From the IMG/VR virus record IMGVR_UViG_3300020732_000001, positions 1 through 61,137 of that record: DNA of 61,137 bases. One strand, given 5' to 3'. Source of the stretch: a virus. Lineage: Duplodnaviria; Caudoviricetes. Of the stretch, positions 20,101 through 52,259 are shown one piece after another. Position 1 is the stretch's first letter, and each line of letters begins with the position of its first letter. Position numbers and translations under genes: made by a program. The notes beneath the pieces are model-generated. The model did not search any database, was not told the DNA's origin, and was given only the letters and a program-made list of their open reading frames with translations.

Positions 20101-23100
20101 TCTGCCGATGCATTCTTGGCTAATGCTATTCGTGATGCTGAATTGCATAGAGCTTATCCAAAAGATGAACGTTATGGTCTAAAGCCAGAGGTATTGGCTG
20201 TAATTAAAGAAGTTAATCGTAGATTTCCAAATGTTTTAGATGGCTTAAGGTTAAGCATTAAGAAACCCAATGAACGTGGATCAACAGGTAACTTTGCACC
20301 ATTATCAAGAATAGTGACGTTATATAAAGACACATCAGGCACATCAGAGCCTAAAACATTTAGACATGAAATTATGCACTCACTTGAGCAGATGATGCCA
20401 GATGATGTGTACATGAAAGTTATTAATAACTGGGCTAAGTCTTTAGCGAAAGCAATTGAAAACTATACAGATAAAAAACATCAAAAATATTTTGATGCTG
20501 TTTTAGATTATGTCAATAATCCAAATGAGCAAACATATCAAAAAGCAAAAGATGCTTTGCCTAATTACAACATGTATCAATACATTAATCCTTCTGAGTT
20601 CTGGGCGGTTAATGCTGAGAAACTGTTTGGGCAGAAGCTAGGCGGTCGTTGGGAAAACTTTAAACGAGCCGTACAAAAACTATTTGAAGGATTAAAGAGT
20701 GTCTTTGGTTTTGATAATCGTTATGGTGTGCATGTGGCGTTTGATCGTTTATTCAAGGGAGATCTTGAGCGTGGCGAGAGTAGACGTATGCTGGTGGATT
20801 ATCTGTATCGTAACAATATAACCAAAGAAACCATATTAGAGAATGTAGATTCAGATGAAATTAATGAATTGTCTGAGAAGCATGGCATCAATGAGCCACC
20901 AGAAAAATTATCGCCATCTGTTGTAGATTGGATTACAGGTGGTAAACAATATGTAAAAAATCTAAAAAATAATTTAAAAGAATCACCAAGAGGCGTAGCT
21001 GTTCAGATGACTGGTAATCTGGATAATGCATTGCTTGGCTTTAGAATCAAAACAACTGACTTTACGGCAGGTCTTGCAGCTGCCGATGCTGAAAAGTATG
21101 GTCGTAAGTTAGAAAACGGCATGAACCAAGCGATTGCTGCAGTAGCAAGCAATCAAGCATTAAGAGCAATTCGTATAGCTTCTAGGGTTGTGGCCAGAGG
21201 AAAATTGGTATTTGATCCTCAATGGCAAATGTTTAGAGCTCAAGAAGACAAGCATTCAATGGCAAACATTTTCCGATTAAGAAAAGAATTTGCTAAACGA
21301 GTTGGTAAATCAGAGGCTAAAAAAGCAATTCAGGGTTTCTTTGAGGCATTACGTTCTAAGAGTATTATTCAAGAGTATGTAGATAGACAAGCCGATTTAG
21401 AAAAATACTTAGCAGAACAAGCTGATCCAACAACTAATGCTAAACGCCAAGCTAAATTAATTAAATTAATTAATGAAGCTCAAGATGATTTGAAAAACGT
21501 AAGTATTGCATTAGAAAAAGTTAGATTGAGTGATGATGCTATTTATGACTTAATTAAGATGGGTGAAAAACATCCAGAGTTAGTGGAGATTCGTAAGAAT
21601 TGGAATGCTATTAATCAAAATATGATTAATATGATGGAGTTTGCCAGCATTATTAGTGAAGAACGTGCCAATACTTTGCGTAATATCAAGGACTATGTTC
21701 CTTGGAATCGTATTATGGATGAGCAAAAAGATGCTCGCAATCCTGTTTGGCTATATACCTCTAAAGGCGTACGAAACGTCAATAGAGAACCAATTTTTAG
21801 ACGAGGAGCAACGAACAGGGATATTGATGACATCATTGATAACATGACGCACAACGTCATGATGATTACTCGCAATGTCATTAAAAACTATGCTGCTAAT
21901 CGTATTGCTCAGGAGTATGCGGAGCGTGATGAAAATGGCAAAATTAAAACTTACCCAGCTGAAGATTTTAGTAAAGGTATTGTTAAAATTTTAGTCAACG
22001 GACAAAAAGTTAATGTCAAGATTCTTGATATGTATGTGGCTCAATCCGTTATTGGTGCTGAGAATGTTCAAATTCCACTTAATGGTATTATGTCGTTCTT
22101 TGCAAACCTTGCAAGAAGAGCGATTACTTTAAGCCCTAAATTCCAAGTTAAACAAGCATTCCAAGATGCGTTTACTGCGGCTATGGTTACTGGTGTTAAA
22201 AACCCTGCTGCTTTGTTAGGGAATGTCTTTGTATCGTTTGCCAAAGGGTTAAATCCCAACGATGAAGTCATTAATACATTAAAAGATTTTGGTGTGGGCG
22301 GTTTTTCTGGCATATCTAGAACACAACAAGGGCGTTACTCTCAAGAAGTTGGCATGTTAAATGATAATCGTCTTTCTCAATTAACTGGACTACTTGACCA
22401 TATTGCTGATGCTTCTGACTATTCACAGCGTATGGCCGCTTACAATCGAGTAATGGCTGAGACTAATGGTGATGTGCGAGCTGCGATTCTTGCTGCGACC
22501 AATGTGATTGACTTTGAAAAACATGGTGCTGGCATAACAATGCAATTTTTAAATCGTACCATTATGTTTATGAATGCTTATGCCCAACAGATCGATGTAT
22601 TAACTCAAGCGTTAATGCTCAATCCTAACGGTGGTCTGCGTGGCATTGATCGTCAGCAAGCTTTAATTCGATTAGGAACAGCTGTAGCAATGATGGCTGG
22701 TATGACATTGCTTTATACATCTTGGGCTGGTGATGACGATGAGTATCAAAAGACAGATGACCGTACTCGTATGCGTAACATTATTCTTCCTAAAGGCAAA
22801 ACTGGCTTTGATCAAACTTATTACATTCCAATTAATACTTCAGCCTCATTCCTGGTCAAAGGCATGATTGAGATGTTACATAACAAATATATTAATGAAT
22901 CATTTAAAGATAAGATTGATGGCACAAGATTTCGTTCAGCCATGTTAAAAGGATTTGTTGATTCTATGTTAGGACCTTTGACTTCTGGACCAGTACCAAC
23001 AGCGTTCAGAGCACCTACTGAAATTATATTGAACCATAACTTTTATACTGGTGGTAAGGTAACTCCAGACAGTATGAAGAACTTAGCAGCATTTCGACAA

Positions 23101-23658
23101 TTCAATGCCAATACATCTGAACTGGGTAAATACATTAGCAGAGCTACTCAGAATCCATTAGATCCAGAACAAAGAATGTTAAACCCAATGGAAGCAGATC
23201 ATGTCATGCGTGGCTTAGGAGGTTCTGTATCAGCTGTTGCCATGTATTTATCTAATATGTTATCTGGCAATCATCCTACGCAAGATGACCGTAAGAATCC
23301 ATTGTATGGAGACTTTATTGCACCTGAGATTCCAAAAGGTAACGAAGAGTTATTCTATGACCTTAAATCTAGGGCTGAAGTAGCTCATGACACAATGACA
23401 GATATGTATCGAAATCAGCATACAGAAGAGGCTCAGAACTGGCAAAAAGCTCATGAAGGATTAATTAAAGCTTATGGATTTACAGAAAGTGCTGGTAAGT
23501 CTTTAGCAGCATTAAATAAAGAAATTCAAAGAACGGCTGACCTTCCAGAGGCTCAGATGACTAAAGAACAGAAAAAAGCCAGAATGATTGAACTGCAAAA
23601 AACAAAACAGATTATTCTTGATAAGACAATCGAGTTTAGAAAGTTAGCTGGACTGTAA
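14182..23658 (+). CDS. Giant polyvalent virion protein with clamp-like, L,D-transpeptidase-like and zincin-like domains and an LPD38-like C-terminus
   Basis: 3158 aa. TDGKRL..FNAEFIEDL..LLMGM; TPAG..SHGCIN; RHEIMH..SEFWA. Occupies the last ejection-gene position. Confidence 0.7.
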   Translation: MPSVSIPYVGVVNFPDDMSHEDISNAIQNHILPNAPHPAATQPGSTSLADTLQQSIFAPVQALFPSVGTEPSTMVGSLAKGVQSLKDIGAQAKLSDLIPLQELDKENYGPNFERAPTTGPQSRENLLATREKVNQYLGQLEQSKANAQAIDAKYGVDPLSKKITALEQTKDFKDASTWEQTKKIGSELLSNFTDIPEYIANVGLSSLPQSIAMAVASKVGASAGITGAMVAGGASSAFMEYGNEYVDLREQGFTHEQANDKAAVKSGIIGLLDAVSLNSAGKVAEKIFGGTRQALKETAKDIGKEIPKQAALGAAGEGFGSYLSNQPVNPRAVMEEALGEVFGAPGEAMSTYQGKRAQQIQNQEAPVVKPEPKGTVTIGPSTPPVPLITEADLEEEPSGRPPVLPTLPHTLEEIMDKGEPVETKQEAEKAHSDGDTVYGFHEQDEEHPVLIKDIDQLKGYTPDQLMVVPKEEKPKEQRKKESPIASSTTYNVKTEDAGTFLTQVFRNKDGSIDIMDEDGQVIKNNKEFAKGKSDAELLAYHFEPLGYESHEVVPKEETPAEVKKEEEQKEEESTSNIVTGVGVNPETINKVIDARSAGKAKDYIKKHGQEFFDQALKDGLIRTFTVGKNTFVTTTDEGDDLYYTNTKTDDGKYSLKEVQDAVDSVKGEWEQFADADKFIKKYPDMLTSAWKSGFLRTSASGTNLFAVYNEEDLERAKQNQADEENPIEMFKQNIAERAAEEKAREEEKAKAPKTKAELNRERQQAKKEAAEKKKQEEEVKKKQLDEEAEMKMPEEIEAEELKDKIAPNETKKINATNYISKSTNAEKLNGWSKIDTYSSIILVGQEDPNVKEFTQHTWTFNPKSGTDAMRAQNLVQVWTQENPLKKEEPKGKIKIEPVVKKTQAEINKERQEAKKNATKKPQDFTNDELDLAAKIVYNGNGIEYEKSVLPILKKLQDAGLIKLQGTKVFLTQESKDAGIPEGSSFSQFSDSEDVKNLRNFLTKGPKKEEVKVEKKPAEEHIEPNKVEPVTPKTIEKSIEKAQSRVDYKKIKQAISNQFDQAIKRATIQTEKEWDASTKERDSFVKIDIPGDGKFKVANNVERLEDLKKKLINAAAPKTGGIPRAPSAASVSSAETAFKNFVEEQDFENAIKYAELKGLDMKEVKLTPDQRKQLDNYIKNPKAFEEEKAEVEKQSEDYVEAQKENAVEKLNLKEEKPKAGQVFPAPAVNKKLFEGTDKPITKKPNWMDEGVWNQYERFQAGNFSMPTASFQGAERIKKGNEFKKEAEKNYKEAARIFLRFASTAKFPTARADKLILEKGSYIPARPIEKKIIGAFTEPNIKKAVYALVDPKEVREALRGAVLEPDKTVSTDGKRLLIVNTKNDVTKPTIVDKDGKVIEAQIAPYEKVLEKYKDLKPSHGVNAEALGDYARGVIKGHKYAGNTFYPITLVVGKENYTFNAEFIEDLTNAFRQLGYPEFNIGIQDKMLKAVSPDGKVTQLLMGMTERDTNFMPFNINNGYPSFTSDEKLGEEYFIEGEATDISNRKLLAGPVDELSEQEQVKLEEHYGAKRNTREFFTQLKDDVIRATNEGIGIIDSAIRDIIAKIQAGVLAVAIIFNPAYMSEGNYFMMPTKERSVRIEQVRAEVPAEAEGMSEAGKHAYSMIAPAQSGTKYFTIVDKPTATAYVFNPDGSLKISRKVLLGKAFGDSYVGQVQFEQNRQTPAGMFTINAEKGNLRDYDGKTIYTLSGDKGAFHVAVMHTVYTKESDGKARLNALTTPGAADSRYSHGCINGTPEFMQSINDEKMDQSHMFVVPDNQAKVDDFLANNVPKDDLDRMEVKPVERQVVEEREQQKVVSGAQQDLLATREEEIKAPKTQAEINRERQQAKKASQETPEEDYRGTFTDNLDERRFFKEESLSNKQHASEQARKVKTSITKILRQMVKGNFGIDTQRALTELLSERTITNIEKKYARVRIDSADAFLANAIRDAELHRAYPKDERYGLKPEVLAVIKEVNRRFPNVLDGLRLSIKKPNERGSTGNFAPLSRIVTLYKDTSGTSEPKTFRHEIMHSLEQMMPDDVYMKVINNWAKSLAKAIENYTDKKHQKYFDAVLDYVNNPNEQTYQKAKDALPNYNMYQYINPSEFWAVNAEKLFGQKLGGRWENFKRAVQKLFEGLKSVFGFDNRYGVHVAFDRLFKGDLERGESRRMLVDYLYRNNITKETILENVDSDEINELSEKHGINEPPEKLSPSVVDWITGGKQYVKNLKNNLKESPRGVAVQMTGNLDNALLGFRIKTTDFTAGLAAADAEKYGRKLENGMNQAIAAVASNQALRAIRIASRVVARGKLVFDPQWQMFRAQEDKHSMANIFRLRKEFAKRVGKSEAKKAIQGFFEALRSKSIIQEYVDRQADLEKYLAEQADPTTNAKRQAKLIKLINEAQDDLKNVSIALEKVRLSDDAIYDLIKMGEKHPELVEIRKNWNAINQNMINMMEFASIISEERANTLRNIKDYVPWNRIMDEQKDARNPVWLYTSKGVRNVNREPIFRRGATNRDIDDIIDNMTHNVMMITRNVIKNYAANRIAQEYAERDENGKIKTYPAEDFSKGIVKILVNGQKVNVKILDMYVAQSVIGAENVQIPLNGIMSFFANLARRAITLSPKFQVKQAFQDAFTAAMVTGVKNPAALLGNVFVSFAKGLNPNDEVINTLKDFGVGGFSGISRTQQGRYSQEVGMLNDNRLSQLTGLLDHIADASDYSQRMAAYNRVMAETNGDVRAAILAATNVIDFEKHGAGITMQFLNRTIMFMNAYAQQIDVLTQALMLNPNGGLRGIDRQQALIRLGTAVAMMAGMTLLYTSWAGDDDEYQKTDDRTRMRNIILPKGKTGFDQTYYIPINTSASFLVKGMIEMLHNKYINESFKDKIDGTRFRSAMLKGFVDSMLGPLTSGPVPTAFRAPTEIILNHNFYTGGKVTPDSMKNLAAFRQFNANTSELGKYISRATQNPLDPEQRMLNPMEADHVMRGLGGSVSAVAMYLSNMLSGNHPTQDDRKNPLYGDFIAPEIPKGNEELFYDLKSRAEVAHDTMTDMYRNQHTEEAQNWQKAHEGLIKAYGFTESAGKSLAALNKEIQRTADLPEAQMTKEQKKARMIELQKTKQIILDKTIEFRKLAGL

Positions 23659-24006: not shown

Positions 24007-24057
24007 TTGACATGATTCATTATATCATGCAAACTATAGTCTGATTAACTGCTAGGA
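24007..24057 (+). promoter_or_regulatory. Sigma70-like promoter followed by AACTGCTAGGA leader motif
   Basis: TTGACA 24007-24012; -10 candidates CAAACT or TATAGT; motif at 24047-24057. Confidence 0.6.
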
Positions 24058-24065
24058 AAATCAAA

Positions 24066-32327: not shown

Positions 32328-32812
32328 AAATAGAATTAAATCGTCATGAAATGTTAATGTGCGAATTATTTGGTTCTATTCGCAGAAAAAACGCTATGCA
32401 ATTTAATTATGATCGCCAGGTCAGCAAACAAGATCCATATGACATGGACATTGATGGTTTTATGGGAGAGTTTGTAGTAGCCAAATATTTAAATATTATG
32501 GTAGATACTTCAATCAATGAAAAAAAGAATCCAACAGATTTATATTTCAATGCTTATTCAGTAGATGTAAAGACTACTCGTAATCCAAAAGGTGGAGTTT
32601 ACGTCACAGAATATCATCGTAAATCGCCATGTGATTACTATATACAAGTTGTAATTAATGGTAATGTTGGTCATATAACTGGCTGGATTGATAAATATGA
32701 TTTATTTTCCAAAGCTGAATATATATCTGGATCTCATCCATCTTATAAATTAAATCAAGAAAATCTTTTACCTATAGAATTACTATATGTACCGAAACAA
32801 ACAACTTCTTGA
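32324..32812 (+). CDS. Putative PD-(D/E)XK nuclease-like protein
   Basis: GFMGEFVV..D..VDVKTT. Confidence 0.55.
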   Translation: MKIELNRHEMLMCELFGSIRRKNAMQFNYDRQVSKQDPYDMDIDGFMGEFVVAKYLNIMVDTSINEKKNPTDLYFNAYSVDVKTTRNPKGGVYVTEYHRKSPCDYYIQVVINGNVGHITGWIDKYDLFSKAEYISGSHPSYKLNQENLLPIELLYVPKQTTS

Positions 32813-33083
32813 ACTGGTTCGTGTTATTCCTTGTCAAAACTGTGGCCTACAGGATGGAACGGTGGTCGCTGCTCATTCTAATCAACTTCGAGATGGTAAA
32901 GGTCGTGGAATCAAAGCTCACGATTATAGGGTGGCAGCTTTATGTTACAAATGCCATAGTGAATTAGATCAAGGTAATAGACTTTCTAAAGAAGAACGAG
33001 TAGAAATGTGGGAAGAAGCCCACAGAAATACGATTGGTTGGTTATTTGAAAATGATTATGTTAAAATTTGTTTAGTTCCTTAA
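32787..33083 (+). CDS. DUF1364/HNH-like Zn-binding protein
   Basis: PCQNCG..VVAAHSN..GRGIK..LCYKCH..D. Confidence 0.7.
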   Translation: MYRNKQLLELVRVIPCQNCGLQDGTVVAAHSNQLRDGKGRGIKAHDYRVAALCYKCHSELDQGNRLSKEERVEMWEEAHRNTIGWLFENDYVKICLVP

Positions 33084-33110
33084 TTTGAGTTATGTCTTGT
33101 TCTGGAATTA

Positions 33111-33152
33111 GAGCTAGGTTTGGGTTACCGCCCTGTCTAGCTCGTTTTTTTT
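33111..33152 (+). terminator. Rho-independent terminator of the recombination/accessory operon
   Basis: GAGCTAG..CTAGCTC stem followed by a T8 run. Confidence 0.75.
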
Positions 33153-33191
33153 GAGGTTCGATTTTTAGTGCCACAGCCAAAAAACAATATG

Positions 33192-33221
33192 TTGACACTT
33201 TTTTAAAATTTCGTCTATACT
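33192..33221 (+). promoter_or_regulatory. Near-consensus sigma70 promoter driving sRNA-1
   Basis: TTGACA-18 nt-TATACT. Confidence 0.8.
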
Positions 33222-33227
33222 TAGTGG

Positions 33228-33354
33228 GTACACCCCATGTACTACCGTCACCGTGACGCATAAACTCCTAGCAGGGTTAATCAAAACTGACGGTAGGATC
33301 CTCCCTGATCCCTCCCCAGAACCCTAGACTAATCATCTGGGGTTCTTTCTTTTT
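33228..33354 (+). ncRNA. Putative trans-acting antisense sRNA (sRNA-1)
   Basis: Own promoter and terminator, no credible ORF. Stems GTACA/TGTAC, CTACCGTCA/TGACGGTAG and GGATC/GATCC. The loop carries the complement of the leader motif. Confidence 0.7.
33318..33354 (+). terminator. Rho-independent terminator of sRNA-1
   Basis: AGAACCCTAGA/TCTGGGGTTCT (1 G-U) followed by TTCTTTTT. Confidence 0.75.
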
Positions 33355-33358
33355 GTGC

Positions 33359-33392
33359 TTGCAAAATATTTTAAAATGGTTTAATCTATAAT
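33359..33392 (+). promoter_or_regulatory. Sigma70-like promoter driving RNA-2
   Basis: TTGCAA-17 nt-TAATCT, overlapping a TATAAT at 33387-33392. Confidence 0.65.
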
Positions 33393-33395
33393 CTC

Positions 33396-33865
33396 AACTG
33401 CTAGGAGTGCGTCACGGAATGAATCAACTCCGTGATAACAATTTGTGTATTTTGTATATACGTTAATTTAACGTGTATAGATTTATGCCATTTTGTTTAC
33501 GCACTCCTAGCACGATGATTTAGGTCTATCGGTCTGAGTATGTGTGAAAGTTGCCCTTGAAGTTGAGTAGAACGGCAAAAAGACATACGTTTACGTTCTT
33601 CCTAAATTAGCGTGATAGTGAGCAAAGAAGATTGTTTAGGCTCAAGGTGTGGAAGCGTGGTCTTTACTCTGTCTGAGAACGATTGAGAACAATAGAGATC
33701 ATTCGGTGACACTTAAACGAACTCGTAGTACAGAGTAGAAAGCACCGATGTGTGAACTAGACTACCAATGGTTCATTAACTTGATATGAAGTAAGCGACC
33801 GAAAGGATATCGAGTTGAGTTTTCCTTCAATCCCATGCTGTGGGGTTGGGGGAAACCTCACTTTC
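33396..33865 (+). ncRNA. Large multi-stem structured RNA or 5' leader (RNA-2)
   Basis: At least 8 helices with many plus-strand G-U wobbles; no long ORF. Confidence 0.65.
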
Positions 33866-33894
33866 AATTTCGTTTCGCTCCCTCAAGGATATAT

Positions 33895-34101
33895 ATGAAA
33901 GAAATCGTAGAACAGAGAATTAAAGAGTTGGAACGGTTGGTTGAGATCACACCGATAAATAAGAGTTTCAGTCTTCAGTCGAGACTGGTTGAGGCGAAAC
34001 ATATCTTAGATCTAATTAATCAAGAAGAGAAGTATGTATCAGAAAGTGTAATGAATGAAATACAAGATGCTTTATATGGAAAAATGAAAGGAAAGAAATG
34101 A
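33895..34101 (+). CDS. Hypothetical protein
   Basis: RBS AAGGA before ATG 33895. Confidence 0.65.
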   Translation: MKEIVEQRIKELERLVEITPINKSFSLQSRLVEAKHILDLINQEEKYVSESVMNEIQDALYGKMKGKK

Positions 34102-34627: not shown

Positions 34628-34654
34628 TATACTGAAATTTCCAACTGCTAGGAG
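34625..34654 (+). promoter_or_regulatory. Extended -10 promoter followed by AACTGCTAGGAG leader motif
   Basis: TGaTATACT 34625-34633; motif at 34643-34654. Confidence 0.6.
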
Positions 34655-34659: not shown

Positions 34660-35514
34660 ATGAAGAAAGTAAATATACTCGCCATTCGTATTGATGGCGG
34701 CACTCAATCTCGTGATAAATTAAATGAAGATGTAGTAAAAGAATATGCTGATTGCATGAAAGATGGTGCAATATTTCCACCGATTACAGTCTTTTTCGAT
34801 GGCTCTGATTACTGGTTAGCCGATGGTTTTCACAGATACTTTGCTAATAAATCTTTAGGTAATGTAGCCCTTGACTGCGATGTCAAAGAAGGCACTTGTA
34901 GGGATGCAGTCTTACATTCCTTTGGTGCAAACGGCAAGAATGGTCTACCACCAACGGCCAAAGAAAAACGCAATATTGTGATTAAAATGATCCAAGATGA
35001 AGAATGGGGTAAATGGTCAAATAAACATATTGCAACCATTGTCCATGTATCCTCAATGACTGTGGGTAGAATCAGAAAAGAATTAGAAGAAGAGCCGAAA
35101 GAAAAAGTCACCTATCTTCGTCAAGGCGTAGAAGTAGAAGCAAAAAAACCAAAGAAGAAAAAAGCTGAAAAGAAAAAAGAAGAACCTATAGCAGAACCAG
35201 TAGATCCTGTAGTGGTAGATCCTGTAGCTCCAGATCAATCTTTAAATCCATTGGAAATCAAGATTGATGAACTTAGTCGAGACATTATTGATTACATTGA
35301 AGAGATCACAAAACTTAAGGATGTGATTGCAACTAAACGATACGATGCCACAGAGTTTGAGCAAGAGGATGCTTTGATGACGATCCAAGAACTTCGTGAG
35401 GAAATTAAACTTAAAGATAGAGAAATTAAATCATTGCGTGATAGTCGTGATATGTATCAAGAACGCAATGCTGAACTCATTAAACAACTCAAAGCTTATC
35501 AGAAGAAAAAATAA
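34660..35514 (+). CDS. ParB/Srx-like N-terminal domain protein with HTH and coiled coil
   Basis: GGTQSR..FPPITV..WLADGFHRY; WSNKHIA..VSSMTV HTH. Confidence 0.75.
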   Translation: MKKVNILAIRIDGGTQSRDKLNEDVVKEYADCMKDGAIFPPITVFFDGSDYWLADGFHRYFANKSLGNVALDCDVKEGTCRDAVLHSFGANGKNGLPPTAKEKRNIVIKMIQDEEWGKWSNKHIATIVHVSSMTVGRIRKELEEEPKEKVTYLRQGVEVEAKKPKKKKAEKKKEEPIAEPVDPVVVDPVAPDQSLNPLEIKIDELSRDIIDYIEEITKLKDVIATKRYDATEFEQEDALMTIQELREEIKLKDREIKSLRDSRDMYQERNAELIKQLKAYQKKK

Positions 35515-38860: not shown

Positions 38861-38929
38861 CTCCTAGCAGTTAAACGATTGCAAAATGGCAATCCCAATG
38901 CCCAATTAAGGGCATCAGGATTACAGCAC
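38861..38929 (-). promoter_or_regulatory. Intergenic hairpin element plus leader motif (copy 1)
   Basis: Long hairpin, then GATTGC/GCAATC hairpin, then AACTGCTAGGAG. Confidence 0.65.
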
Positions 38930-40885: not shown

Positions 40886-40960
40886 CTCCTAGCAGTTAAA
40901 GTTAATGATTGCCGAAAATGACAATCCCTAAACCCTCTAGAGAGGGCTTAGAGGTGGCAC
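40886..40960 (-). promoter_or_regulatory. Intergenic hairpin element plus leader motif (copy 2)
   Basis: Same layout as 38861-38929. Confidence 0.65.
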
Positions 40961-41368
40961 TTAGTGGCTCTCTTCTGTCTCTGGTGCTTGAGTAAACAAT
41001 TCAGGGAAAGCCGTAAAAAGTTTATAAGCGTTTGTTTGATCTGCTCTAGTGAAAGCCTGAGCAAGATAGAAAGCAAACGAGCCTTGATTCTGCATAATGT
41101 TGCATGACTCGAAGGCTTGAGCCTTTTGGATAGCGTTTAATTTCATAAGGTGATTCCTTTGTGAGTGAAAAAAATTGTCTGCTGAACTTTTGGAGAGAGA
41201 ATATAAAATTTGCTCTGGTGTAGGATCGTTGAGAGCCCACCACTCAAGACAGTTATATTTAGTGTTAAATCTGGCGATATCGTAAAGCGTAACATCAGCA
41301 TGAGGGGATTTAAAGGCGATTACTTGACCTTCAAATAGTGGTGTTGCTGTAAAGTTCGTTCCTCTCAT
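40961..41368 (-). CDS. Hypothetical protein, possibly a fusion of two genes
   Basis: Internal RBS and ATG at 41146, before a GSFA..LA.A..RAD..N..KL..AFPELF module. Confidence 0.65.
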   Translation of the reverse strand: MRGTNFTATPLFEGQVIAFKSPHADVTLYDIARFNTKYNCLEWWALNDPTPEQILYSLSKSSADNFFHSQRNHLMKLNAIQKAQAFESCNIMQNQGSFAFYLAQAFTRADQTNAYKLFTAFPELFTQAPETEESH

Positions 41369-41799
41369 GCTAGAGCCTCCTCTTTCTGGGTGATGTAATA
41401 GCCGATTGTGTGCCCTTTTTTATTGCCTTCCCATTGGACTTCTAAGCCGATCGCTTCGGCGATTCTACGCATGGACTCAATCCCACAACCTCCATTTAAG
41501 TAAACTGAGCCATCTGGCTTAATGAATAAGCCGTAATAGTTGGGGTGATAAGTGCCCTTCACTACCTTATCAGGAGTAGAGCCGTAATCCTCTAAGGGGA
41601 GATCTCTAACAAGGGCTTGAAGTGCCTCTTGGTGTTCACACTCTAGATAGTCTCCAAATACTGTGCCGATCATGTCATAGCCTCCACCATTACATTTATA
41701 AGAGTGCCCAGATCGTGAGGAAAGTTTGCAAATGTTATAGCCGTAAGTGTCTCGACCTCTGGAGACTGACCAAGTGATTTTAAGATGATTGATTTTCAT
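41365..41799 (-). CDS. Conserved phage hypothetical protein (GGGYDM..G / GGCG)
   Basis: First gene after the leader motif at 41809-41820. Confidence 0.75.
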   Translation of the reverse strand: MKINHLKITWSVSRGRDTYGYNICKLSSRSGHSYKCNGGGYDMIGTVFGDYLECEHQEALQALVRDLPLEDYGSTPDKVVKGTYHPNYYGLFIKPDGSVYLNGGCGIESMRRIAEAIGLEVQWEGNKKGHTIGYYITQKEEALA

Positions 41800-41808: not shown

Positions 41809-41882
41809 CTCCTAGCAGTTGGTTAAAAATTGTGTCATGTATTGACCTCTTGATTTTCTTCTAGTGGTGTATTGACTGTCAA
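41809..41882 (-). promoter_or_regulatory. Divergent promoter region with direct repeats and leader motif
   Basis: Minus-strand TTGACA 41882-41877; TGTATTGAC at 41838 and 41868; CTCCTAGCAGTT 41809-41820. Confidence 0.55.
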
Positions 41883-42034
41883 GCGTTTTGATGTAAAAAA
41901 ACAAATTATTTTTGATCTGGGAAGTTAAGCCCAGGTGATAACTTTTGACCTGGTGAGTGAGGAGGTCGCAGATCGTTGCAATAAATAAAGAGAATGCCCT
42001 ATACTTGGGGTGTGAACATTCCGAGAATATACCT

Positions 42035-42955
42035 ATGAGAAAACTTACAAAAAAAGAAATTGCCGAAGGCATACAGGCTATGCCAATCGAAAGAATACTA
42101 ATGGGTGCTAATAGTCCTAAAGGAATCAAACTCACCAAGAGACAAAAGGAATTTGCAGAGCAAGTAGTAAAGACTGGTAATAAGACGGAGGCATACAGAA
42201 GGGCTTACACATCCAATGGGAAGAACACCACAGCATCACGCAATGCAAACACAGTTGCAAAAAATAGCAAAGTGCAGACATACATCACAGCCCTTGAAAC
42301 GGCTAAAGAAGTGGAGGAATATCTTCTACCCACTCAGTTGAGGACAATGGCAATTCAGAAACTCTCCTCAATGGCTCTCAATGACGAGTTACCACCAGCC
42401 CAGCAGTTGAAGGCTCTTGAGTTGGTCGGCAAGATGTCGGAGGTCTCTTTGTTCTCGCAGAGAGTCGAGCACATTCATTCAGTAGATAGCCAAACACTCA
42501 AGGCTCAGTTACTTACAGCCATCACAACGGCCATAACTAATAGCAAGAGCCTACAATCTAGAGTTAAAAGAACGGCTGAAAGTCTTTTGGCAGAGTTAAA
42601 CGGCTCTGATCTGGTAGAAATCGAAGGGGCAGGGACTGAAATTCTGACTCCAGAGCCTCCCACCACCCCCCACCACCCCAAAATTGAATTAGCATTGGCT
42701 GAGCCTTTGCATAGTATTCCCCACAATGAATCACCAACTATTGACAGTCAAGAAATAGTAACCAATAACGATACTAGGGTAAACCCTGACATGTCTAACA
42801 ATGTTACACATCTAGGGGAAAACCCTAATATGTCGAACAATGTTATACATGTAGGTATAAACCCTAATGGGGAGTGGGTAACAAAAATGGAGTGGGTTGA
42901 GAGTAACAATGTTATAGAAACACCCCCCATCACAAATTGGATTGAAAAAGGGTAG
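42035..42955 (+). CDS. terS: Terminase small subunit
   Basis: LTKRQKEFAEQVVKTGNKTEAYRRAY HTH; KALELVGK; lies upstream of TerL. Confidence 0.75.
   Translation: MRKLTKKEIAEGIQAMPIERILMGANSPKGIKLTKRQKEFAEQVVKTGNKTEAYRRAYTSNGKNTTASRNANTVAKNSKVQTYITALETAKEVEEYLLPTQLRTMAIQKLSSMALNDELPPAQQLKALELVGKMSEVSLFSQRVEHIHSVDSQTLKAQLLTAITTAITNSKSLQSRVKRTAESLLAELNGSDLVEIEGAGTEILTPEPPTTPHHPKIELALAEPLHSIPHNESPTIDSQEIVTNNDTRVNPDMSNNVTHLGENPNMSNNVIHVGINPNGEWVTKMEWVESNNVIETPPITNWIEKG
42775..42914. repeat. 39-bp-period tandem of two palindromes in the terS 3' end
   Basis: TAGGG..AAACCCT at 42775, 42813 and 42852; (T)AACAATGTTA at 42796, 42835 and 42904. Confidence 0.8.
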
Positions 42956-42966
42956 GGGGGTATATT

Positions 42967-43285
42967 TTGGAAAATTACGAAGAATGGAAGAAAAGAATTG
43001 ATATAGAGGTGGCTACCTTAGATCAAACAATTGCGATATTAAAAACATTAAGAGATGCAACGGCTTTAAGTTCTTTTCCATGTAGCAGTATAAATAGATT
43101 TAGGATTGCTAAGAAACAACCGAATGAGGATAAAAATGACTTTTGATGATGTTGAACAGTATCTACAGTATTTAGCTATTCATGATAGGAGAAGGTTAAT
43201 GGTACTGATGGATAGGTTAAAGCATACGCTGATGCATGACGCTGCTTGGGAGGCTGCACAAGAATTAATTAGGAGAGTAAAGTGA
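42967..43285 (+). CDS. Two small ORFs: 42967-43146 (59 aa, TTG start) and 43136-43285 (49 aa)
   Basis: They fill the gap with coupled frames; RBS GAGGA before 43136. Confidence 0.5.
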
Positions 43286-43509
43286 CGAAGGCACAAAAGG
43301 AAATATTTCATGTAATTGAAGCTTATTGGAATAACTTTGGCTTTGGTCCTACGGTGGATGATGTAATGTTTATGACTGGCGATAAAGGGCGTGGTAATAC
43401 GCATCGCAAAATGAAAATGTTAATAAAAATAGGGGTTTGTAAAGGAGACTTAAAGTATGCTCGTAGCATTCGCCCTGCGTATATTAAACTTAGGAATTTA
43501 AATGGATGA
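43282..43509 (+). CDS. LexA-like N-terminal DNA-binding domain protein (no peptidase domain)
   Basis: MTKAQKEIF..I..FGFGPTVDDV..ARSIR. Confidence 0.75.
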   Translation: MTKAQKEIFHVIEAYWNNFGFGPTVDDVMFMTGDKGRGNTHRKMKMLIKIGVCKGDLKYARSIRPAYIKLRNLNG

Positions 43510-45004
43510 AGAAATAAAAAGGCTGTTAGATATTCTTGAGCTTCTTCCAGATGAAGAGAAGGCTCCGATTGTTCCAATAGCAAATGCTTATTTAGCTTCG
43601 TTGACGAAGGAACAAGGTGAGATTGACTTTATGAGTTTTGTACAGACGATGTGGCCAGGGTTTATACATGGCGAACATCATGCTTTGATGGCAGCTAAAT
43701 TTGAGGAGATTGCTAGTGGAAAAATTAAACGACTTATTATCAATATGCCTCCTCGGCATACTAAGTCTGAATTTGCTTCTTACCTGTTACCTGCTTGGTA
43801 TTTGGGTAAATTCCCCAATAAGAAAATTATTCAATGCTCGAACACGGCAGAACTAGCCGTAGGATTTGGTAGGAAGGTGAGGAACTTAGTTGATGGAGAA
43901 AATTATGGAAAAGTATTTCCCAATGTATCTCTTCGGTCGGATAGTAAAGCTGCTGGTCGTTGGTCCACCAATGCTAATGGTGAGTATTTTGCTATTGGTG
44001 TTGGTGGTACTGTTACTGGTAAGGGAGCTGATTTACTCATTATCGATGATCCTCATTCAGAACAGGAAGCTGCGTTGGCAGCAGGAGATCCTTCGGTTTT
44101 TGATAAGGTTTACGAGTGGTATACGTCAGGTCCACGTCAGCGTTTACAACCTGGTGGTTCGATTGTTGTAGTGATGACTCGCTGGTCAAAAAGAGATTTG
44201 ACTGGCAAAATTTGTCAGGCGATGATTGACCGAGATGGTGATGAATGGGAAATTATCAGCCTTCCAGCAATTAAGCGAAATGAAAAACCATTATGGCCAG
44301 AGTTCTGGAGTTACGATGAACTGTGTAAGCTACGGATTGAATTACCTTTATCCAAGTGGCAAGCTCAGTATCAGCAGGATCCAACAAGTGAAGAAGGTGC
44401 GATTGTTAAAAGAGAGTGGTGGCAAGTGTGGGAAAAGGAGACACCACCTCCATGTCACTATATAATCCAGTCATGGGATACGGCATTTACGAAAAGTGAG
44501 CGAGCCGACTATTCAGCCTGTACAACTTGGGGAGTATTTTATTTAAATGAAAACGAGCAAGACCCACATATTATTTTATTGGATGCACTTAAAGAGCGTA
44601 TGGAGTTCCCCACTCTTAAAGAAAGAGCCTACGAAATGTACAAGGATTGGCAACCTGACAGCTTTATTGTTGAAGCGAAAGCGTCTGGTGCTCCCCTTAT
44701 ATTTGAGCTTAGACGAATGGGAATACCTGTTCAAGAGTTTACACCGACTAGGGGAAACGATAAAATATCTAGGGTTAATAGCGTATCAGATTTGTTTGCT
44801 AGTGGTAAGGTATGGGCACCAAGAAAAAGATGGGCTGAAGAAGTCGTAGAAGAGCTGGCAGCATTTCCAAACTCAGATCACGATGACTTGGTAGACTCAA
44901 CCACACAAGCTTTGTTAAGATTCAGAAGAGGTGGATTTATCACTTTACAAAGTGATGAGCCAGATGAGCCTAAAGAATTTAGGCGTAAACGTGCATATTA
45001 TTAA
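43502..45004 (+). CDS. terL: Terminase large subunit
   Basis: NMPPRHTKSE, IIDDP, QSWDTAF, HDDLVDS. Confidence 0.95.
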   Translation: MDEEIKRLLDILELLPDEEKAPIVPIANAYLASLTKEQGEIDFMSFVQTMWPGFIHGEHHALMAAKFEEIASGKIKRLIINMPPRHTKSEFASYLLPAWYLGKFPNKKIIQCSNTAELAVGFGRKVRNLVDGENYGKVFPNVSLRSDSKAAGRWSTNANGEYFAIGVGGTVTGKGADLLIIDDPHSEQEAALAAGDPSVFDKVYEWYTSGPRQRLQPGGSIVVVMTRWSKRDLTGKICQAMIDRDGDEWEIISLPAIKRNEKPLWPEFWSYDELCKLRIELPLSKWQAQYQQDPTSEEGAIVKREWWQVWEKETPPPCHYIIQSWDTAFTKSERADYSACTTWGVFYLNENEQDPHIILLDALKERMEFPTLKERAYEMYKDWQPDSFIVEAKASGAPLIFELRRMGIPVQEFTPTRGNDKISRVNSVSDLFASGKVWAPRKRWAEEVVEELAAFPNSDHDDLVDSTTQALLRFRRGGFITLQSDEPDEPKEFRRKRAYY

Positions 45005-45012
45005 GGATTCAT

Positions 45013-47529
45013 ATGTCAATAGATAAAGCCCTGTATCAAGCCCCACAAGGTTTAGCAGCCATCGATGGACCAGATGTTGAAATTGAGATTGTCGATCCAG
45101 AAGAAGTAGACATCAAAATGGATGGCGTAGAAGTCCAACTCGGTGGTGAGTCTATTGAAGACTTTGACGCTAATTTGGCGGAATATGTTCCTGAATCGGT
45201 CTTAACGCAAATCGCTGGTGATCTCATGGGAGATTTTCAGTCCGACATTGATTCTCGTAAAGACTGGATACAGACTTATGTGGATGGTTTAGAGTTACTT
45301 GGACTCAAGATTGAAGAACGCTCAGAGCCGTGGGAAGGTGCTTGTGGAGTTTACCATCCTGTTTTGGCAGAAGCGGTGATTAAGTTTCAGTCAGAGACCA
45401 TTATGGAAACTTTTCCAGCAAGTGGTCCTGTTAAGGGTGAGATAGTCGGTAAAGAAACCCAAGACAAAAAAGATGCAATGGGTAGAGTGGTAGAAGATAT
45501 GAACCATCAGCTAGTGGATGTGATGCAAGAATATCGCCCAGAACATGAACGTATGCTTTGGGGAGTAGGACTTTCAGGTAATGGATTTAAGAAAGTCTAT
45601 GTTGATCCAACGCTAGATCGTCAGGTTTCGATGTATATTCCAGCAGAAGACTTAGTTGTTCCGTATGGTGCGAGTAGTCTTGAGGCGGCTGAAAGAATTA
45701 CCCATGTGATGCGTAAGACTGAAAGTGAGATGAATCACTTGATTTATGCAGGATTTTACAGAGATATTAGTTTAGGAACACCAGATAACATTCTGGATGA
45801 AGTAGAAAAGAAGATAGCAGAAAAGTTAGGGTTTAGAGCAACAACGGATGACCGTTTTAAGATCTTAGAAATGCATGTGCATTTAGATTTACCTGGCTTT
45901 GAACATAAAGATAAGGCAGGAGCTGAAACTGGAATCGCTCTTCCGTATGTTGTAACGATTGAAAAAGCCAATGGAATGATATTGGCAATTCGTAGAAACT
46001 GGAGAGAAGATGACAAGACACACCAAAAAAGACAACATTTTGTTCATTATGGTTATATTCCTGGTTTTGGTTTTTACCACTTTGGGCTTATACACCTTAT
46101 TGGGGCTTTTGCCAAATCTGGAACTTCTATTTTAAGACAGTTAGTTGATGCAGGATCCTTGTCTAATCTTCCAGGAGGCTTTAAAACTCGTGGATTACGA
46201 GTCAAAGGCGATGATACACCGATAGCTCCAGGCGAATTTAGAGACGTAGATGTACCATCTGGCACGATGAAAGACAACATTATGCCGTTGCCGTACAAAG
46301 AACCAAGCCAAACATTGATGGCATTGCTCAATCAGATCGTGGAAGAGGGTAGAAGGTTTGCTTCTAGTGGCGATTTGAAGGCAAGTGACATGAGTAGCCA
46401 GTCACCAGTCGGTACAACGCTGGCAATTTTGGAAAGAACCTTGAAAGTCATGAGTGCGATACAAGCTCGTATCCACTATTCAATGAAACAAGAGTTCAAA
46501 TTACTTAAAGAGATTATTGCTGACTACGCTCCAGAGGATTATTCCTTTGAACCTGATACTGGAGACCGTAAAGCTCGTAGATCTGACTATGAAATGGTCA
46601 ATATTATCCCTGTAAGCGACCCTAATGCGGCTACTATGAGCCAAAAAGTGGTGCAATATCAGGCAGTTTTACAGCTTTCACAGACTGCACCCCAGCTTTA
46701 TAACTTACCTTATCTACATAGACAGATGTTAGAAGTGATTGGGATAAAAAATGCAGAAAAATTGGTGCCAATGCAAGAAGATATGAAGCCAACGGACCCT
46801 ATTACGGAGAATATGAACGCTTTAAAGAATAAACCACTCAAGGCTTTCATGTATCAAGACCATCAAGCTCATATTCAAATCCACATGGCTGCATTAAATG
46901 ATCCAAAAATCAAACAAGTCATTGGTCAAAACCCACAAGCACCACAAATTATGCAAGCTTTACAGTCACATATTACCGAGCATGTGGGAATGGAGTATAT
47001 GAGACAGATGCAAGAGCAAATGGGTATCCAAATTCCTTATTCTGATAATGAAGATGATGATATTAAGTTAACACCAGAACAAGAAATGCAGATTACTCGC
47101 ATGGCTGTACCAGCTGCACAGAATATTCTAGGTCAAAATAAAACTGCTCAAGCTGCACAACAAGCTCAACAAGCTGCACAAGATCCAATTATCCAGATGC
47201 AGATGAAAGAATTACAGTTAAAGGCACAAGAAATTGATATTAAGCAGAAGAAGATGCAAATTGATGCGGCTAAAGGTGCTGATCAGATTGAAATTGAAAA
47301 AATGCGTATTGCAGCCCAAAAAGAAATTGCTGGTATGCAGATTGGAGCTAAAACAAGATCTGATAGAGAGTCTTTAGAAGCCAAACAACAGTTAGAAGGT
47401 ATGAAGTTAGGTCATCAAATTGGTAATGCAAAAGCCCAAATGAATCAACAACGCCAAAGTCAAAAACTTCAGGTAACAGCTGATTTATATAAAAACGCTA
47501 AACAACTTAAAAAAAAGGAAATTAAATGA
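45013..47529 (+). CDS. Portal protein (P22-like)
   Basis: 838 aa directly after TerL; GFKKVY, PVGTTLAI and a Gln-rich barrel-like C-terminus. Confidence 0.85.
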   Translation: MSIDKALYQAPQGLAAIDGPDVEIEIVDPEEVDIKMDGVEVQLGGESIEDFDANLAEYVPESVLTQIAGDLMGDFQSDIDSRKDWIQTYVDGLELLGLKIEERSEPWEGACGVYHPVLAEAVIKFQSETIMETFPASGPVKGEIVGKETQDKKDAMGRVVEDMNHQLVDVMQEYRPEHERMLWGVGLSGNGFKKVYVDPTLDRQVSMYIPAEDLVVPYGASSLEAAERITHVMRKTESEMNHLIYAGFYRDISLGTPDNILDEVEKKIAEKLGFRATTDDRFKILEMHVHLDLPGFEHKDKAGAETGIALPYVVTIEKANGMILAIRRNWREDDKTHQKRQHFVHYGYIPGFGFYHFGLIHLIGAFAKSGTSILRQLVDAGSLSNLPGGFKTRGLRVKGDDTPIAPGEFRDVDVPSGTMKDNIMPLPYKEPSQTLMALLNQIVEEGRRFASSGDLKASDMSSQSPVGTTLAILERTLKVMSAIQARIHYSMKQEFKLLKEIIADYAPEDYSFEPDTGDRKARRSDYEMVNIIPVSDPNAATMSQKVVQYQAVLQLSQTAPQLYNLPYLHRQMLEVIGIKNAEKLVPMQEDMKPTDPITENMNALKNKPLKAFMYQDHQAHIQIHMAALNDPKIKQVIGQNPQAPQIMQALQSHITEHVGMEYMRQMQEQMGIQIPYSDNEDDDIKLTPEQEMQITRMAVPAAQNILGQNKTAQAAQQAQQAAQDPIIQMQMKELQLKAQEIDIKQKKMQIDAAKGADQIEIEKMRIAAQKEIAGMQIGAKTRSDRESLEAKQQLEGMKLGHQIGNAKAQMNQQRQSQKLQVTADLYKNAKQLKKKEIK

Positions 47530-47720
47530 AAGAAAAAATACTAGATCATCTTCTCAAACAGATTGATGACAAAGTAAAGATTCTTGAAGAGGCTCTGGGA
47601 ATCGGTGAAGCCAAAGACTATGCCGATTACCAAAGAATGTGTGGTGAGATACATGGTCTGCTCACGATGCGTAGAAATATCATAGACCTTAAATCAAGAC
47701 TGGAGAATTTCGATGAGTAA
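47526..47720 (+). CDS. Hypothetical protein
   Basis: Y..MCGEIHGL motif. Confidence 0.7.
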   Translation: MKEKILDHLLKQIDDKVKILEEALGIGEAKDYADYQRMCGEIHGLLTMRRNIIDLKSRLENFDE

Positions 47721-48123
47721 AATCCTAATCGGCTCAAACACCGATGATGTGAACGCAACAACAACCCTGCCTCAAACAGCAGAAGAAAAAGCAAAGCAGT
47801 TACCTGAACCAATGGGTTATCGCATGTTGGTAGCAATACCAGATGCAGAAAAAGAACATAGTGGTGGAATTCTAAAAGCAGACCAAACTCTGCACATGGA
47901 AGAAGTTTTATCTACTGTATTCTTTGTTTTAAAAATGGGACCTGATTGTTATCAAGATGAGAAGCGTTTCCCAAATGGTCCGTGGTGTAAAGTCGGTGAC
48001 TTTGTTCTAGCCAGACCCAATACTGGCACTCGCCTAAAGATTCATGGCAGAGAATTCCGATTAATCAATGATGATTCTGTCGAGGCAGTAGTGGATGATC
48101 CTCGTGGAATTACAAGAGCTTAA
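47713..48123 (+). CDS. GroES/Cpn10-like co-chaperonin
   Basis: PMGYRMLV..SGGIL..VLKMGP..KVGDFV..GREFRLINDDSVEAVV. Confidence 0.85.
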   Translation: MSKILIGSNTDDVNATTTLPQTAEEKAKQLPEPMGYRMLVAIPDAEKEHSGGILKADQTLHMEEVLSTVFFVLKMGPDCYQDEKRFPNGPWCKVGDFVLARPNTGTRLKIHGREFRLINDDSVEAVVDDPRGITRA

Positions 48124-48133
48124 GGAGAACACA

Positions 48134-49072
48134 ATGGCTGAATTTGAAAAACAAGATTTTTCGTTTTTAAGTGAAGATATTGAAGATGAAAAAGTTGAAA
48201 TCGAAGTTGTCGATGATACTCCAGAGGAAGATCGGATTAATGCTGCACCGATGCCAAAGGAAATTGTTGATGAGTTTGAAGCTGACGATTTAGAGTCTTA
48301 CTCTAAAGAAGCTAAACAACGCATTCTTCAAGCAAAAAAACTGTTAAATGACGAGCGTAGGGCTAAAGAAGCAGCTCTCAGAGAAAACGAAGAAGCTATT
48401 CGTCTTGCTAATACCATTATTAATGAGAATAAGATTTTAAAAAGTCGACTTTCTGATGGTGAAAAAGTCTATGTTAATACGGCTAAAGAGAAGTTAGCCT
48501 CTGACTTAGATAAGGCAAGAAGAGAATATAAAGAAGCGTATGACTCTGGTGATGCTGAAAGATTGGTCGAAGCTCAAGAGCGATTAACAGAAGTGCAGTT
48601 TAAAGCTCAAGAGATGGAAAGATATCGCCCACAATACGATGAAAATGCTTTACAATCATCTGTAAATGAGGTACAAATACCTCAAGAGCAGGACCAACCT
48701 GCACGACTGGACTCAAAAACCCAAGCGTGGCTTGACAAAAACAAGTGGTATGGTACTGACGATGATATGAGTTTTCTCGCTATGGGCATACATAAGCGAC
48801 TAGAAAGGGAAGGGGCCCCACTAGGCTCCGATTACTACTGGTCTACTATTGATGCAGAAATGAGAAAACGATTCCCTGAAAAGTTTGGGGAAGTAGAGAC
48901 CAAAACCTTTACAACAACTCGCAAAAGCACGGTAGTTGCACCAGCAACGAGATCTACCTCTTCAAAAAAGATTACTTTAAATACTCGACAACTGGATCTG
49001 TGTAAGAAATTAAAAATTTCACCAGAGCAATATTTTAATGCATATGTAAAATCGGAGTCCCAAAATGGCTGA
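48134..49072 (+). CDS. Putative scaffolding protein
   Basis: Acidic coiled coil between portal and capsid; RBS AAGGAG. Confidence 0.65.
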   Translation: MAEFEKQDFSFLSEDIEDEKVEIEVVDDTPEEDRINAAPMPKEIVDEFEADDLESYSKEAKQRILQAKKLLNDERRAKEAALRENEEAIRLANTIINENKILKSRLSDGEKVYVNTAKEKLASDLDKARREYKEAYDSGDAERLVEAQERLTEVQFKAQEMERYRPQYDENALQSSVNEVQIPQEQDQPARLDSKTQAWLDKNKWYGTDDDMSFLAMGIHKRLEREGAPLGSDYYWSTIDAEMRKRFPEKFGEVETKTFTTTRKSTVVAPATRSTSSKKITLNTRQLDLCKKLKISPEQYFNAYVKSESQNG

Positions 49073-49517: not shown

Positions 49518-49532
49518 TTTTAGGAGAATTAT

Positions 49533-50417: not shown

Positions 50418-50432
50418 TTAAGGAGCATTTAA

Positions 50433-51335: not shown

Positions 51336-51360
51336 GGTTATTTCCTTTGTGAGAGGACTT

Positions 51361-51390
51361 GTCCCCAGCCTAAAAACTGGGGATTTTTTT
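51361..51390 (+). terminator. Rho-independent terminator after the major capsid gene
   Basis: GTCCCCAG/CTGGGGAT stem followed by a T run. Confidence 0.8.
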
Positions 51391-51436
51391 ATAAAAAAGA
51401 TTGCACAAATTTATAGAAGTAGTAAACTAATGATTA

Positions 51437-51504: not shown

Positions 51505-51516
51505 AAGGAGACCATT

Positions 51517-52227: not shown

Positions 52228-52237
52228 TTAATCCGAT

Positions 52238-52259
52238 AGGGGGCTACGGTCCCCTTTTT
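52238..52259 (+). terminator. Hairpin/terminator with cUACGg tetraloop
   Basis: AGGGGGC-TACG-GTCCCCT-TTTT. Confidence 0.6.

Follow-up and report, generated by a model that had tools for sequence, protein, structure and literature searches.

A folded non-coding RNA with an exchangeable body ahead of the replication genes of an uncultured freshwater phage

The early region of an uncultured freshwater phage contains a folded non-coding RNA gene at positions 33396-33894, preceded on the same strand by a candidate small RNA. The window, by which we mean the whole stretch of DNA analysed, corresponds to a virus record of 61,137 bp that is complete and bears terminal repeats; it represents a tailed phage. 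Both RNAs lie in an intergenic gap (33084-33894) that follows an HNH-like gene (32787-33083) and precedes three small open reading frames (ORFs), a ParB-like gene (34660-35514), an SF2 helicase gene and a Toprim primase gene; a minus-strand block of small orphan genes comes after the primase. The gap holds no credible reading frame. An earlier note on this DNA had described 33396-33865 as the largest ORF-free region of the genome, and the longest stretch devoid of ORFs of at least 40 amino acids on either strand is indeed found here, at 33262-33834. The note proposed that the region encodes a large non-coding RNA, an attenuating leader or a replication primer RNA.

Structure of the long RNA

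Folding of 33396-33865 is better than that of shuffled sequences on both strands. The plus strand reaches -152.7 kcal/mol (z -5.82, none of 100 shuffles as low) and the minus strand -114.7 kcal/mol (z -4.04). The first hairpin contributes much of this excess: the z values of the body alone (33513-33894) are -2.07 on the plus and -0.69 on the minus strand, and those of 33513-33865, obtained with a separate shuffle set, are -3.0 and -0.2. As a yardstick, the same shuffling assigns about -0.8 to a covariation-backed RNA that occupies this position in related phages (type B, see below) and a value above 0 to another (type D). The structured region described in the earlier note is therefore real, but it runs to 33894 rather than 33865 and is made up of two units rather than one, a leader-lock domain (33396-33513) and a payload (33513-33894). 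ARAGORN found no tRNA or tmRNA genes in the window, and the 4227 models of Rfam 15, applied to the whole window at gathering score, gave no match, leaving the RNA without membership in any of these families; a separate Rfam scan of 32900-34100 returned six chance-level matches only (E at least 1.8).

The leader-lock is a conserved three-helix RNA domain, because its stem recurs across loci and its covariation exceeds both shuffled and slid controls. The closing stem, which ties the 5' end of the RNA to a downstream arm, is found in 14 of 15 loci by our own criterion, with a shifted stem in L010, and encloses hairpins Ha (33412-33435) and Hb (33455-33479). The domain was evaluated on a nine-sequence alignment of related phages, with the structure written by hand from the fold of the window. 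Pairing was observed in 94.9% of cells, and 17 of the 33 pairs had changed on both sides, values reached by none of 500 shuffles; with the partners slid by 1-3 columns, pairing did not exceed 46%. The plus strand is more stable than the minus strand in 12 of the 15 loci. The 14-bp helix noted earlier between 33399-33412 and 33499-33512 is perfect on sequence and backed by this covariation, which also supports the enclosed TCACGGA/TCCGTGA and TATATACGTTA/TAACGTGTATA, the latter with one G-U pair. The loop of Ha, 10 nt long, is kept in sequence as well in most relatives. The 5' arm of the closing stem repeats the leader that the early operons of the phage have in common; no conserved ORF follows it here, and it is always buried in the stem.

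The payload of the window, which we call type A, varies far less. In a five-way alignment 33505-33890 is almost identical in all five sequences, and the hairpin before 33505 differs among them by compensating changes. Type A is nearly invariant in about 20 contigs: 20 locus entries, several of which repeat a contig, vary at no more than four positions, and four DNA runs of different years contain no variant letter between 33503 and 33983. A metagenome scan with the 105-aa neighbour recovered 53 loci, of which ten carry type A at 99.2-99.7% identity. Searches for diverged forms with a 24-mer and a 17-mer yielded just seven identical copies. Two 20-mers taken from blocks conserved in the diverged copy described next found no further copies, and four extra matches of an 18-mer were rejected as chance occurrences in GC-rich coding DNA.

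One diverged copy, L186, came solely from a search pattern built on the lock domain. It differs from the window by 39 substitutions and two indels in 382 nt. When these are placed on a structure predicted from the window sequence alone, 17 of the 24 substitutions at paired sites (71%) keep a standard pair, against 46 +/- 8% for the same substitution types placed at random (P ~0.002). Centroid and maximum-expected-accuracy structures give a similar result; mirrored on the minus strand, 10 of 24 are kept. A joint fold with L186 contains double compensatory changes at 33668-33686, 33703-33748 and 33705-33746. Covariation among homologues, called for in the earlier note, is thus present in the lock, and pairing is also kept in the body of L186. 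The substitutions suggest that type A is selected as a plus-strand RNA, and the support they lend is real but thin.

The individual helices listed in the earlier note fared unequally in L186. The 15-bp terminal hairpin is preserved across six toggles between wobble and Watson-Crick pairs, all in its 5' arm, with the G-rich 3' arm (33839-33853) unchanged. The helix 33511-33524/33601-33614 is consistent with the two changes it has undergone, both to G-U. AACTTGATAT/ATATCGAGTT stands in part, with one change from G-U to A-U and one end pair lost. GTATGT/ACATAC, TTGCC/GGCAA, TGAGC/GCTCA and TGAAC/GTTCA are invariant and hence uninformative on pairing. TTTACTCTGT/ACAGAGTAGA (33663-33672/33730-33739) is contradicted by three uncompensated changes (33668, 33731 and 33732), and a helix of 33657-33669 with 33685-33702 appears favoured over it. 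The CC-GAAA-GG tip was considered as a GNRA loop kept through variation and dropped, as GACA, the usual variant, does not fit the GNRA pattern. A weaker, terminator-like hairpin with a U-rich, poor tail (33840-33861) overlaps the terminal hairpin; both are kept in L186, where a 36-nt block is unchanged. Separately, a low-depth contig of run X9 carries a type A variant that shows 20 differences over the 153 nt of 33591-33743 and continues from 33743 straight to 33814, dropping 70 nt with two hairpins. The payload thus also occurs in another form that is both diverged and shorter.

Exchange of the payload

The payload is a discrete cassette that is swapped for unrelated folded RNAs at the same junctions. 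Anchored on the helicase, a scan of IMG/VR recovered 37 related loci, 12 of which have blastn similarity to the gap, over its whole length in four. By diagnostic motifs, the slot holds type A in four loci, type B or a B-like RNA in 13, type C in nine, type D in two and none of these in nine, three of which do not reach the slot. Similarity among the payload types was not found beyond chance words of 7-12 nt. Contigs break precisely at two positions, 33511 and 33894, and beyond the first of these the loose end continues as type C.

The sequence that follows type A is equally changeable. It is a 68-aa ORF in the window and in L037, an unrelated 54-aa ORF in the L002 type, and no ORF in L186, where the payload gives way at once to the promoter and leader of the next operon. 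Because of these three downstream contexts, the payload is not the leader of a particular gene; no conserved linkage of type A to one downstream gene was found, and the attenuating leader of the earlier note finds no support as the main role of a 382-nt body that stays the same in all three. Since unrelated RNAs swap at the same junctions, the payload is an RNA in its own right, untied to one downstream gene.

Types A, B and C match no Rfam family. Type D is the Rfam motif Betaproteobacteria-1 (RF02932), found behind a lock hairpin in the same slot at L022:5043-5162 (92.5 bits) and L038:4662-4778 (89.1 bits). Its presence in a phage slot is a hint that phages carry the motif, perhaps with Betaproteobacteria as their hosts. 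Type C is an RNA-like module of 200-265 nt and highly conserved (L017:2036-2300, L011:4736-4960, L026:1483-1750); by eye, one of its stems shows compensating changes, and L011 has an additional hairpin insertion.

Type B, of about 230 nt, is widespread (L013:1752-1975, L009:2117-2350 and 67 further loci, L215-L281). In eight sequences, 17 of its 47 predicted pairs show compensatory changes. A degenerate pattern has 71 matches in IMG/VR, with a second B motif nearby in 48. Among the 46 matches with enough upstream sequence, 15 are preceded by the anti-leader motif of the small RNA described below, and the other 31 belong to other phage lineages. In 27 loci type B stands behind a Cro-like gene (P22_Cro, E 4.9e-6, below the Pfam cut-off). 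Seven loci inspected by eye have B beginning 8-15 nt past a terminator-ended unit of about 130 nt and followed by a promoter. The payload RNAs are thus genes for portable RNAs, and the places where they settle lie immediately ahead of replication or early-right genes.

Some details of these other settings may be added. Differing units of about 130 nt, each with a -10-like box and a strong terminator, lie directly before B in L240, L258, L253, L216, L262 and L218; in the unit of L240, as judged by eye alone, a conserved segment of type B is present both as a copy and as its complement. A tRNA gene (L218:8872-8944, the same stretch in L269) is located directly upstream of the small unit and type B.

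The shared leader and the upstream small RNA

The sequence buried in the lock recurs across the early region. The 12-nt AACTGCTAGGAG, which includes the Shine-Dalgarno sequence AGGAG, is present in the window in five exact copies and one copy with a single mismatch; at up to two mismatches there are 13 matches against 3.9 expected. All copies except that at 33396 open an early transcription unit, 5-12 nt upstream of its start codon, and the plus-strand copies follow a -10-like box (Table 1). The six copies have the same orientation relative to the gene, supplying the Shine-Dalgarno sequence. Among the 37 related loci, 28 have the core TGCTAGG about 14 nt ahead of the ParB-like start. A second shared motif, GATTG..CATTTT..GCAATC or ATGCCATTTTG, considered as a promoter element, did not rise above chance in frequency.

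The predicted small RNA upstream of the lock has its own promoter and terminator. Its parts are a 5' hairpin, a long stem-loop with CCUAGCAG at the tip, a GGAUC hairpin, and a terminator at 33318-33346 followed by a T-run, and the fold has a z of -2.5. In an alignment of 20 distinct relatives, the only invariant internal block is CCTAGCA, with the next G kept in at least 90%. The stems vary with compensation, and all four predicted pairs of the 5' hairpin have compensatory changes. CUAGCA is exposed in a 6-nt apical loop in 11 of the 20 minimum-free-energy folds. The invariant block is complementary to the leader, and the pairing extends into the Shine-Dalgarno sequence in some phages and into AAC in others. 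Duplexes of the small RNA with the leader range from -19.5 to -28.6 kcal/mol, compared with a median of -10.3 over 213 start-codon windows, and the leader-bearing genes rank 2, 3, 5 and 7 of the 213 by duplex energy, the trivial antisense self-hit excluded. The small RNA matches no Rfam family, RF01695 included.

Judged from its conserved loop and these duplexes, the small RNA is probably a trans-acting anti-leader RNA. The rival explanation is that the leader motif is a DNA operator. The motif CT(G/C)CTAG(G/C)AG is nearly palindromic (8 of 10 positions, by eye), which makes such a role possible and is the point in favour of this rival.

Table 1. Features of the RNA locus and copies of the early leader in the window
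Feature	Position	Strand	Basis
Leader copy with one mismatch, head of recombination operon (exonuclease, Erf)	24047-24058	+	Motif scan
Sigma-70-type promoter (TTGACA, 18 nt, TATACT)	33192-33221	+	11/12 consensus; kept in close relatives
Small RNA, ~125 nt, predicted ends	33227-33355	+	Promoter-to-terminator bracket
Anti-leader core CCTAGCAG	33267-33274	+	Complementary over 9-14 nt to six window leader sites
Putative promoter P2 (TTGCAA, 17 nt, TAATCT)	33359-33387	+	By eye; hexamers and spacing in 11/12 related loci printed
Leader-lock, leader/Shine-Dalgarno AACUGCUAGGAG paired with 33499-33512	33396-33513	+	Covariation, folds
Type A payload, ~eight hairpins, 382 nt	33513-33894	+	Comparative; no Rfam match
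15-bp terminal hairpin	33821-33853	+	Pairing in L186
Leader AACTGCTAGGAG, exact, after -10 box TGATATACT, ahead of ParB-like start 34660	34643-34654	+	Motif scan
Leader ahead of small early gene	38861-38872	-	Motif scan
Leader ahead of small early gene	40886-40897	-	Motif scan
Leader ahead of 144-aa gene 41365-41799	41809-41820	-	Motif scan

Function, known systems and genomic setting

Among the three roles proposed in the earlier note, it is the large non-coding RNA that agrees with the plus-strand structure, the covariation, the lack of an ORF, the conserved promoter and the structured RNAs in the slot of relatives. The reading we favour, with some reserve, is that the long RNA is an early, stand-alone accessory non-coding RNA that carries an exchangeable payload and acts beyond its own transcript. 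We infer from the sequence where such a transcript would start and end, that it would be stable and made early, and that it would act in trans on a target. The sigma-70-type P2 would drive the gene early in infection, with transcription starting near 33394-33396. The leader with its Shine-Dalgarno sequence would then pair with the complementary arm 100 nt downstream, turning the first 118 nt into the lock, which may keep both ribosomes and the upstream anti-leader small RNA off the transcript. With few unpaired bases at its 5' end the RNA would be long-lived; alternatively, RNase III might cut the long stem. The 382-nt payload of about eight hairpins would work as an RNA in its own right, and the terminal hairpin would stabilise or define the 3' end. 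In this phage, read-through would give an mRNA of the three small genes behind the payload. As the body is exchangeable, we judge the target of the payload to be host-directed or accessory and not essential.

Several points weigh against this reading. The transcription, ends and abundance of the long RNA are predictions. P2, taken here as the own promoter that the earlier note ascribed to the RNA, keeps its hexamers and spacing among relatives when these are compared by eye, but it is a weak consensus match (8/12) and is not listed by the consensus scan. A clear intrinsic terminator was not found after the payload, where there is a weak terminator-like hairpin only, so the long RNA may be nothing more than the 5' portion of a longer mRNA. 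The payload is not complementary over 12 nt or more to any other part of the phage genome, which leaves no candidate target there. The comparative support for type A comes from one diverged copy, in which one helix of the earlier note fails, and the other copies could be nearly invariant because they spread recently, not because they are under selection. Type C shows compensatory changes in none of its 62 predicted pairs and has little variation. Finally, type B elsewhere stands directly behind a terminator and has no promoter of its own, an arrangement that read-through or action in cis fits at least as well as a free-standing RNA does.

Action in cis is the first alternative. The long RNA would be an element of the early or replication unit, a platform for processive antitermination, attenuation or processing that helps transcripts from the upstream promoters into the ParB-like, helicase and primase genes. 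Its object would be the very polymerase or transcript producing it, and it would have no role as a free RNA. The lack of a strong terminator after the payload agrees with this, as do the mutually exclusive hairpins at its 3' end (33821-33853 and 33840-33861), the second with a U-rich tail, and the 36-nt block unchanged in L186, and the payloads are always upstream of replication genes. In lambda-type phages, antitermination sites sit between the Cro-type gene with its terminator and the next genes, which is where type B is found in other lineages. In the window, however, the stretch from the payload to the ParB-like gene gave no terminator that a polymerase would have to overcome, and the replication operon has its own promoter and leader right after the payload. 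Four unrelated RNAs of 120-380 nt would need to have the same polymerase as their target, and the downstream ORFs vary or are missing. We regard action in cis as unlikely on these grounds, although the setting of type B in other lineages keeps it alive, together with the replication reading considered next.

A role in replication would have the transcript prime or open an origin, through an R-loop of the ColE1 or T4 kind, or would make the AT-rich, palindromic 33438-33498 the origin itself, with the small RNA as copy control. Position argues for it: the RNA is directly upstream of the ParB-like, helicase and primase genes, and two lineages have payload RNAs ahead of replication or early-right genes. 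The 3' arm of the terminal hairpin (33839-33853) is G-rich and kept while its partner drifts, as would suit an RNA-DNA hybrid that persists. The genes of the window include no recognised initiator protein, and an initiator-independent, transcript-primed origin would be freely exchangeable. The region itself bears few marks of an origin. It has no iterons (no direct-repeat families in 33084-33900, and one 10-nt tandem of 2.5 copies), it is not richer in AT than the genome (GC 0.40 vs ~0.36-0.38), and the cumulative GC skew does not turn here. Selection appears to act on plus-strand RNA pairing, G-U pairs included, and payloads are swapped with no change of the replication genes. RNA II of ColE1 is a long structured primer transcript upstream of replication functions, G-rich near its 3' end, and the stem-loop RNA I pairs with its 5' end. 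The likeness to the window locus lies in a long structured RNA with a G-rich 3' part and a small RNA able to pair with the 5' end. In ColE1, however, the control RNA is antisense. The small RNA of the window is encoded ahead of the long RNA and in the same direction, as a unit with a promoter and a terminator to itself, and is no antisense of it; the site in the long RNA with which it could pair is tied up in the lock stem; and the motif it would target is common to five mRNA leaders, which favours translation control over copy control. A replication element is quite doubtful in our view. For the replication primer RNA of the earlier note the evidence is divided, with the position of the payloads in its favour and the missing iterons and the exchange of payloads at constant replication genes against it.

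In its broadest form, to which we likewise give little credence, this alternative would make payloads A-D portable, initiator-independent replication starters that fold, hybridise through a G-rich 3' end and prime or open the DNA before the replication genes. If this were true, it would explain why unrelated RNAs interchange at one junction and why two or more unrelated lineages have type B ahead of replication or early-right genes, and the lock and the anti-leader small RNA would set how often the transcript is made or stays intact.

The last alternative, a motif that serves as the operator of a phage regulator beside an invariant 382 nt that is a recently spread, hitch-hiking insert, draws on the palindromic motif, its position at or just past promoters and the restriction of type A to about 20 near-identical contigs and one diverged copy, as recent spread predicts, but it is very improbable given that the six leader copies share their orientation to the gene and supply the Shine-Dalgarno sequence, the lock arms co-vary far beyond the motif, the L186 substitutions preserve pairing on one strand only, and the slot also holds RNAs with independent support (types B and D).

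The reading as a stand-alone accessory RNA can be set beside other known systems. Stable stems near the 5' end and hairpins that sequester the Shine-Dalgarno sequence are familiar from the 5' hairpin of ompA and the RNase III sites of T7. The lock resembles them in having a stable stem that starts only a few bases from the 5' end, with a Shine-Dalgarno sequence inside it. It differs in burying a copy of the phage's own early leader, in lacking a conserved ORF, and in its two further conserved hairpins, one with the conserved loop of Ha.

As regards the small RNA, the seqA, seqB and seqC of phage P4 are copies of a target and its complement set in a row on one strand, and the window locus is alike. 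The loops of the c4 RNA of P1 and P7 are complementary to the ribosome-binding region of a phage mRNA, according to PMC12197685. The small RNA of the window is similar to c4 (RF01695, immI of P1/P7) and to the CI RNA of P4 in presenting a loop complementary to leader/Shine-Dalgarno sites. Unlike c4, neither it nor the long RNA matches the RF01695 model. Whereas RNase P cuts c4 from the transcript of its target operon, the small RNA, with its own promoter and terminator, is predicted not to arise by processing of the target operon. The target of c4 is one antirepressor gene, whereas that of the small RNA would be a 12-nt leader common to six transcripts, and the c4 and CI systems are without a counterpart of the 500-nt RNA that carries a locked copy of the target.

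GOLLD and ROOL, as presented by Weinberg et al. 2017 (PMC5737381), are likewise structured RNAs carried by phages, devoid of a coding frame and placed among variable genes. Type A matches neither Rfam model, is smaller (382 nt), is built as a string of hairpins without adjoining tRNAs, and is joined to a conserved 5' lock and swapped with three other RNA types. The long RNA resembles GOLLD and ROOL only in kind. In L022 and L038 the slot is filled instead by Betaproteobacteria-1, which likewise stands behind a lock hairpin of this kind; type A has no sequence similarity to it, and RF02932 gives no match in the window. The main text of PMC5737381 does not mention Betaproteobacteria-1. No printed description of the locus was found in the literature on Betaproteobacteria-1 and on structured anti-defence RNAs of phages, though one may still exist.

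To our knowledge, phage-borne structured RNAs without a known function are few, and most of them are isolated motifs. The locus described here yields a new RNA, type A, and a second, widespread new family, type B, and provides an orphan Rfam motif, Betaproteobacteria-1, with a phage home. Judging from the way unrelated RNAs replace one another at fixed junctions, phages appear to trade RNA genes as cassettes, like accessory protein genes, and the role of one payload, once worked out, would probably explain the others. The shared 12-nt leader, the complementary small RNA and the non-coding RNA with the same leader locked form a simple RNA circuit. If the small RNA represses the whole early set through the leader, the circuit would amount to a compact, RNA-only shut-off of early genes.

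The remaining gene content of the window is that of a tailed phage. Terminase, portal, head and tail protein genes are found at 41957-61137 and 1-23658, and the early region extends from about 24 to 42 kb and contains an exonuclease and an Erf-type annealing protein. Lysogeny genes were not recognised in the window, nor was an antirepressor among the genes scanned. The closest cultured or deposited relative has a helicase identity of just 57%, and a gap of this kind is absent from its locus; the gap itself has no blastn match in the phage collection. The 22 listed runs that carry the DNA are freshwater or lake metagenomes, with no RNA runs among them. A scan of the genome collection recovered 11 loci, the three close ones on short contigs of metagenome-assembled genomes (MAGs). 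These contigs (L046, L047 and L048), which carry a close relative of the helicase, are labelled Terrimicrobiaceae, Bacteroidetes and Microbacteriaceae. The labels are mutually inconsistent and therefore unusable for naming the host, and the contigs are probably mis-binned phage DNA.

Two further observations concern the wider sequence. A single ORF of 3158 aa (14182-23658) lies inside the block of virion and tail genes. After the HNH-like gene, 33112-33150 holds a 7-bp inverted repeat with a 21-nt loop and then eight T; it is present in the window and L002 only. Other close relatives have HNH coding sequence in its place, and the 3' end of the HNH-like gene thus varies among close relatives.

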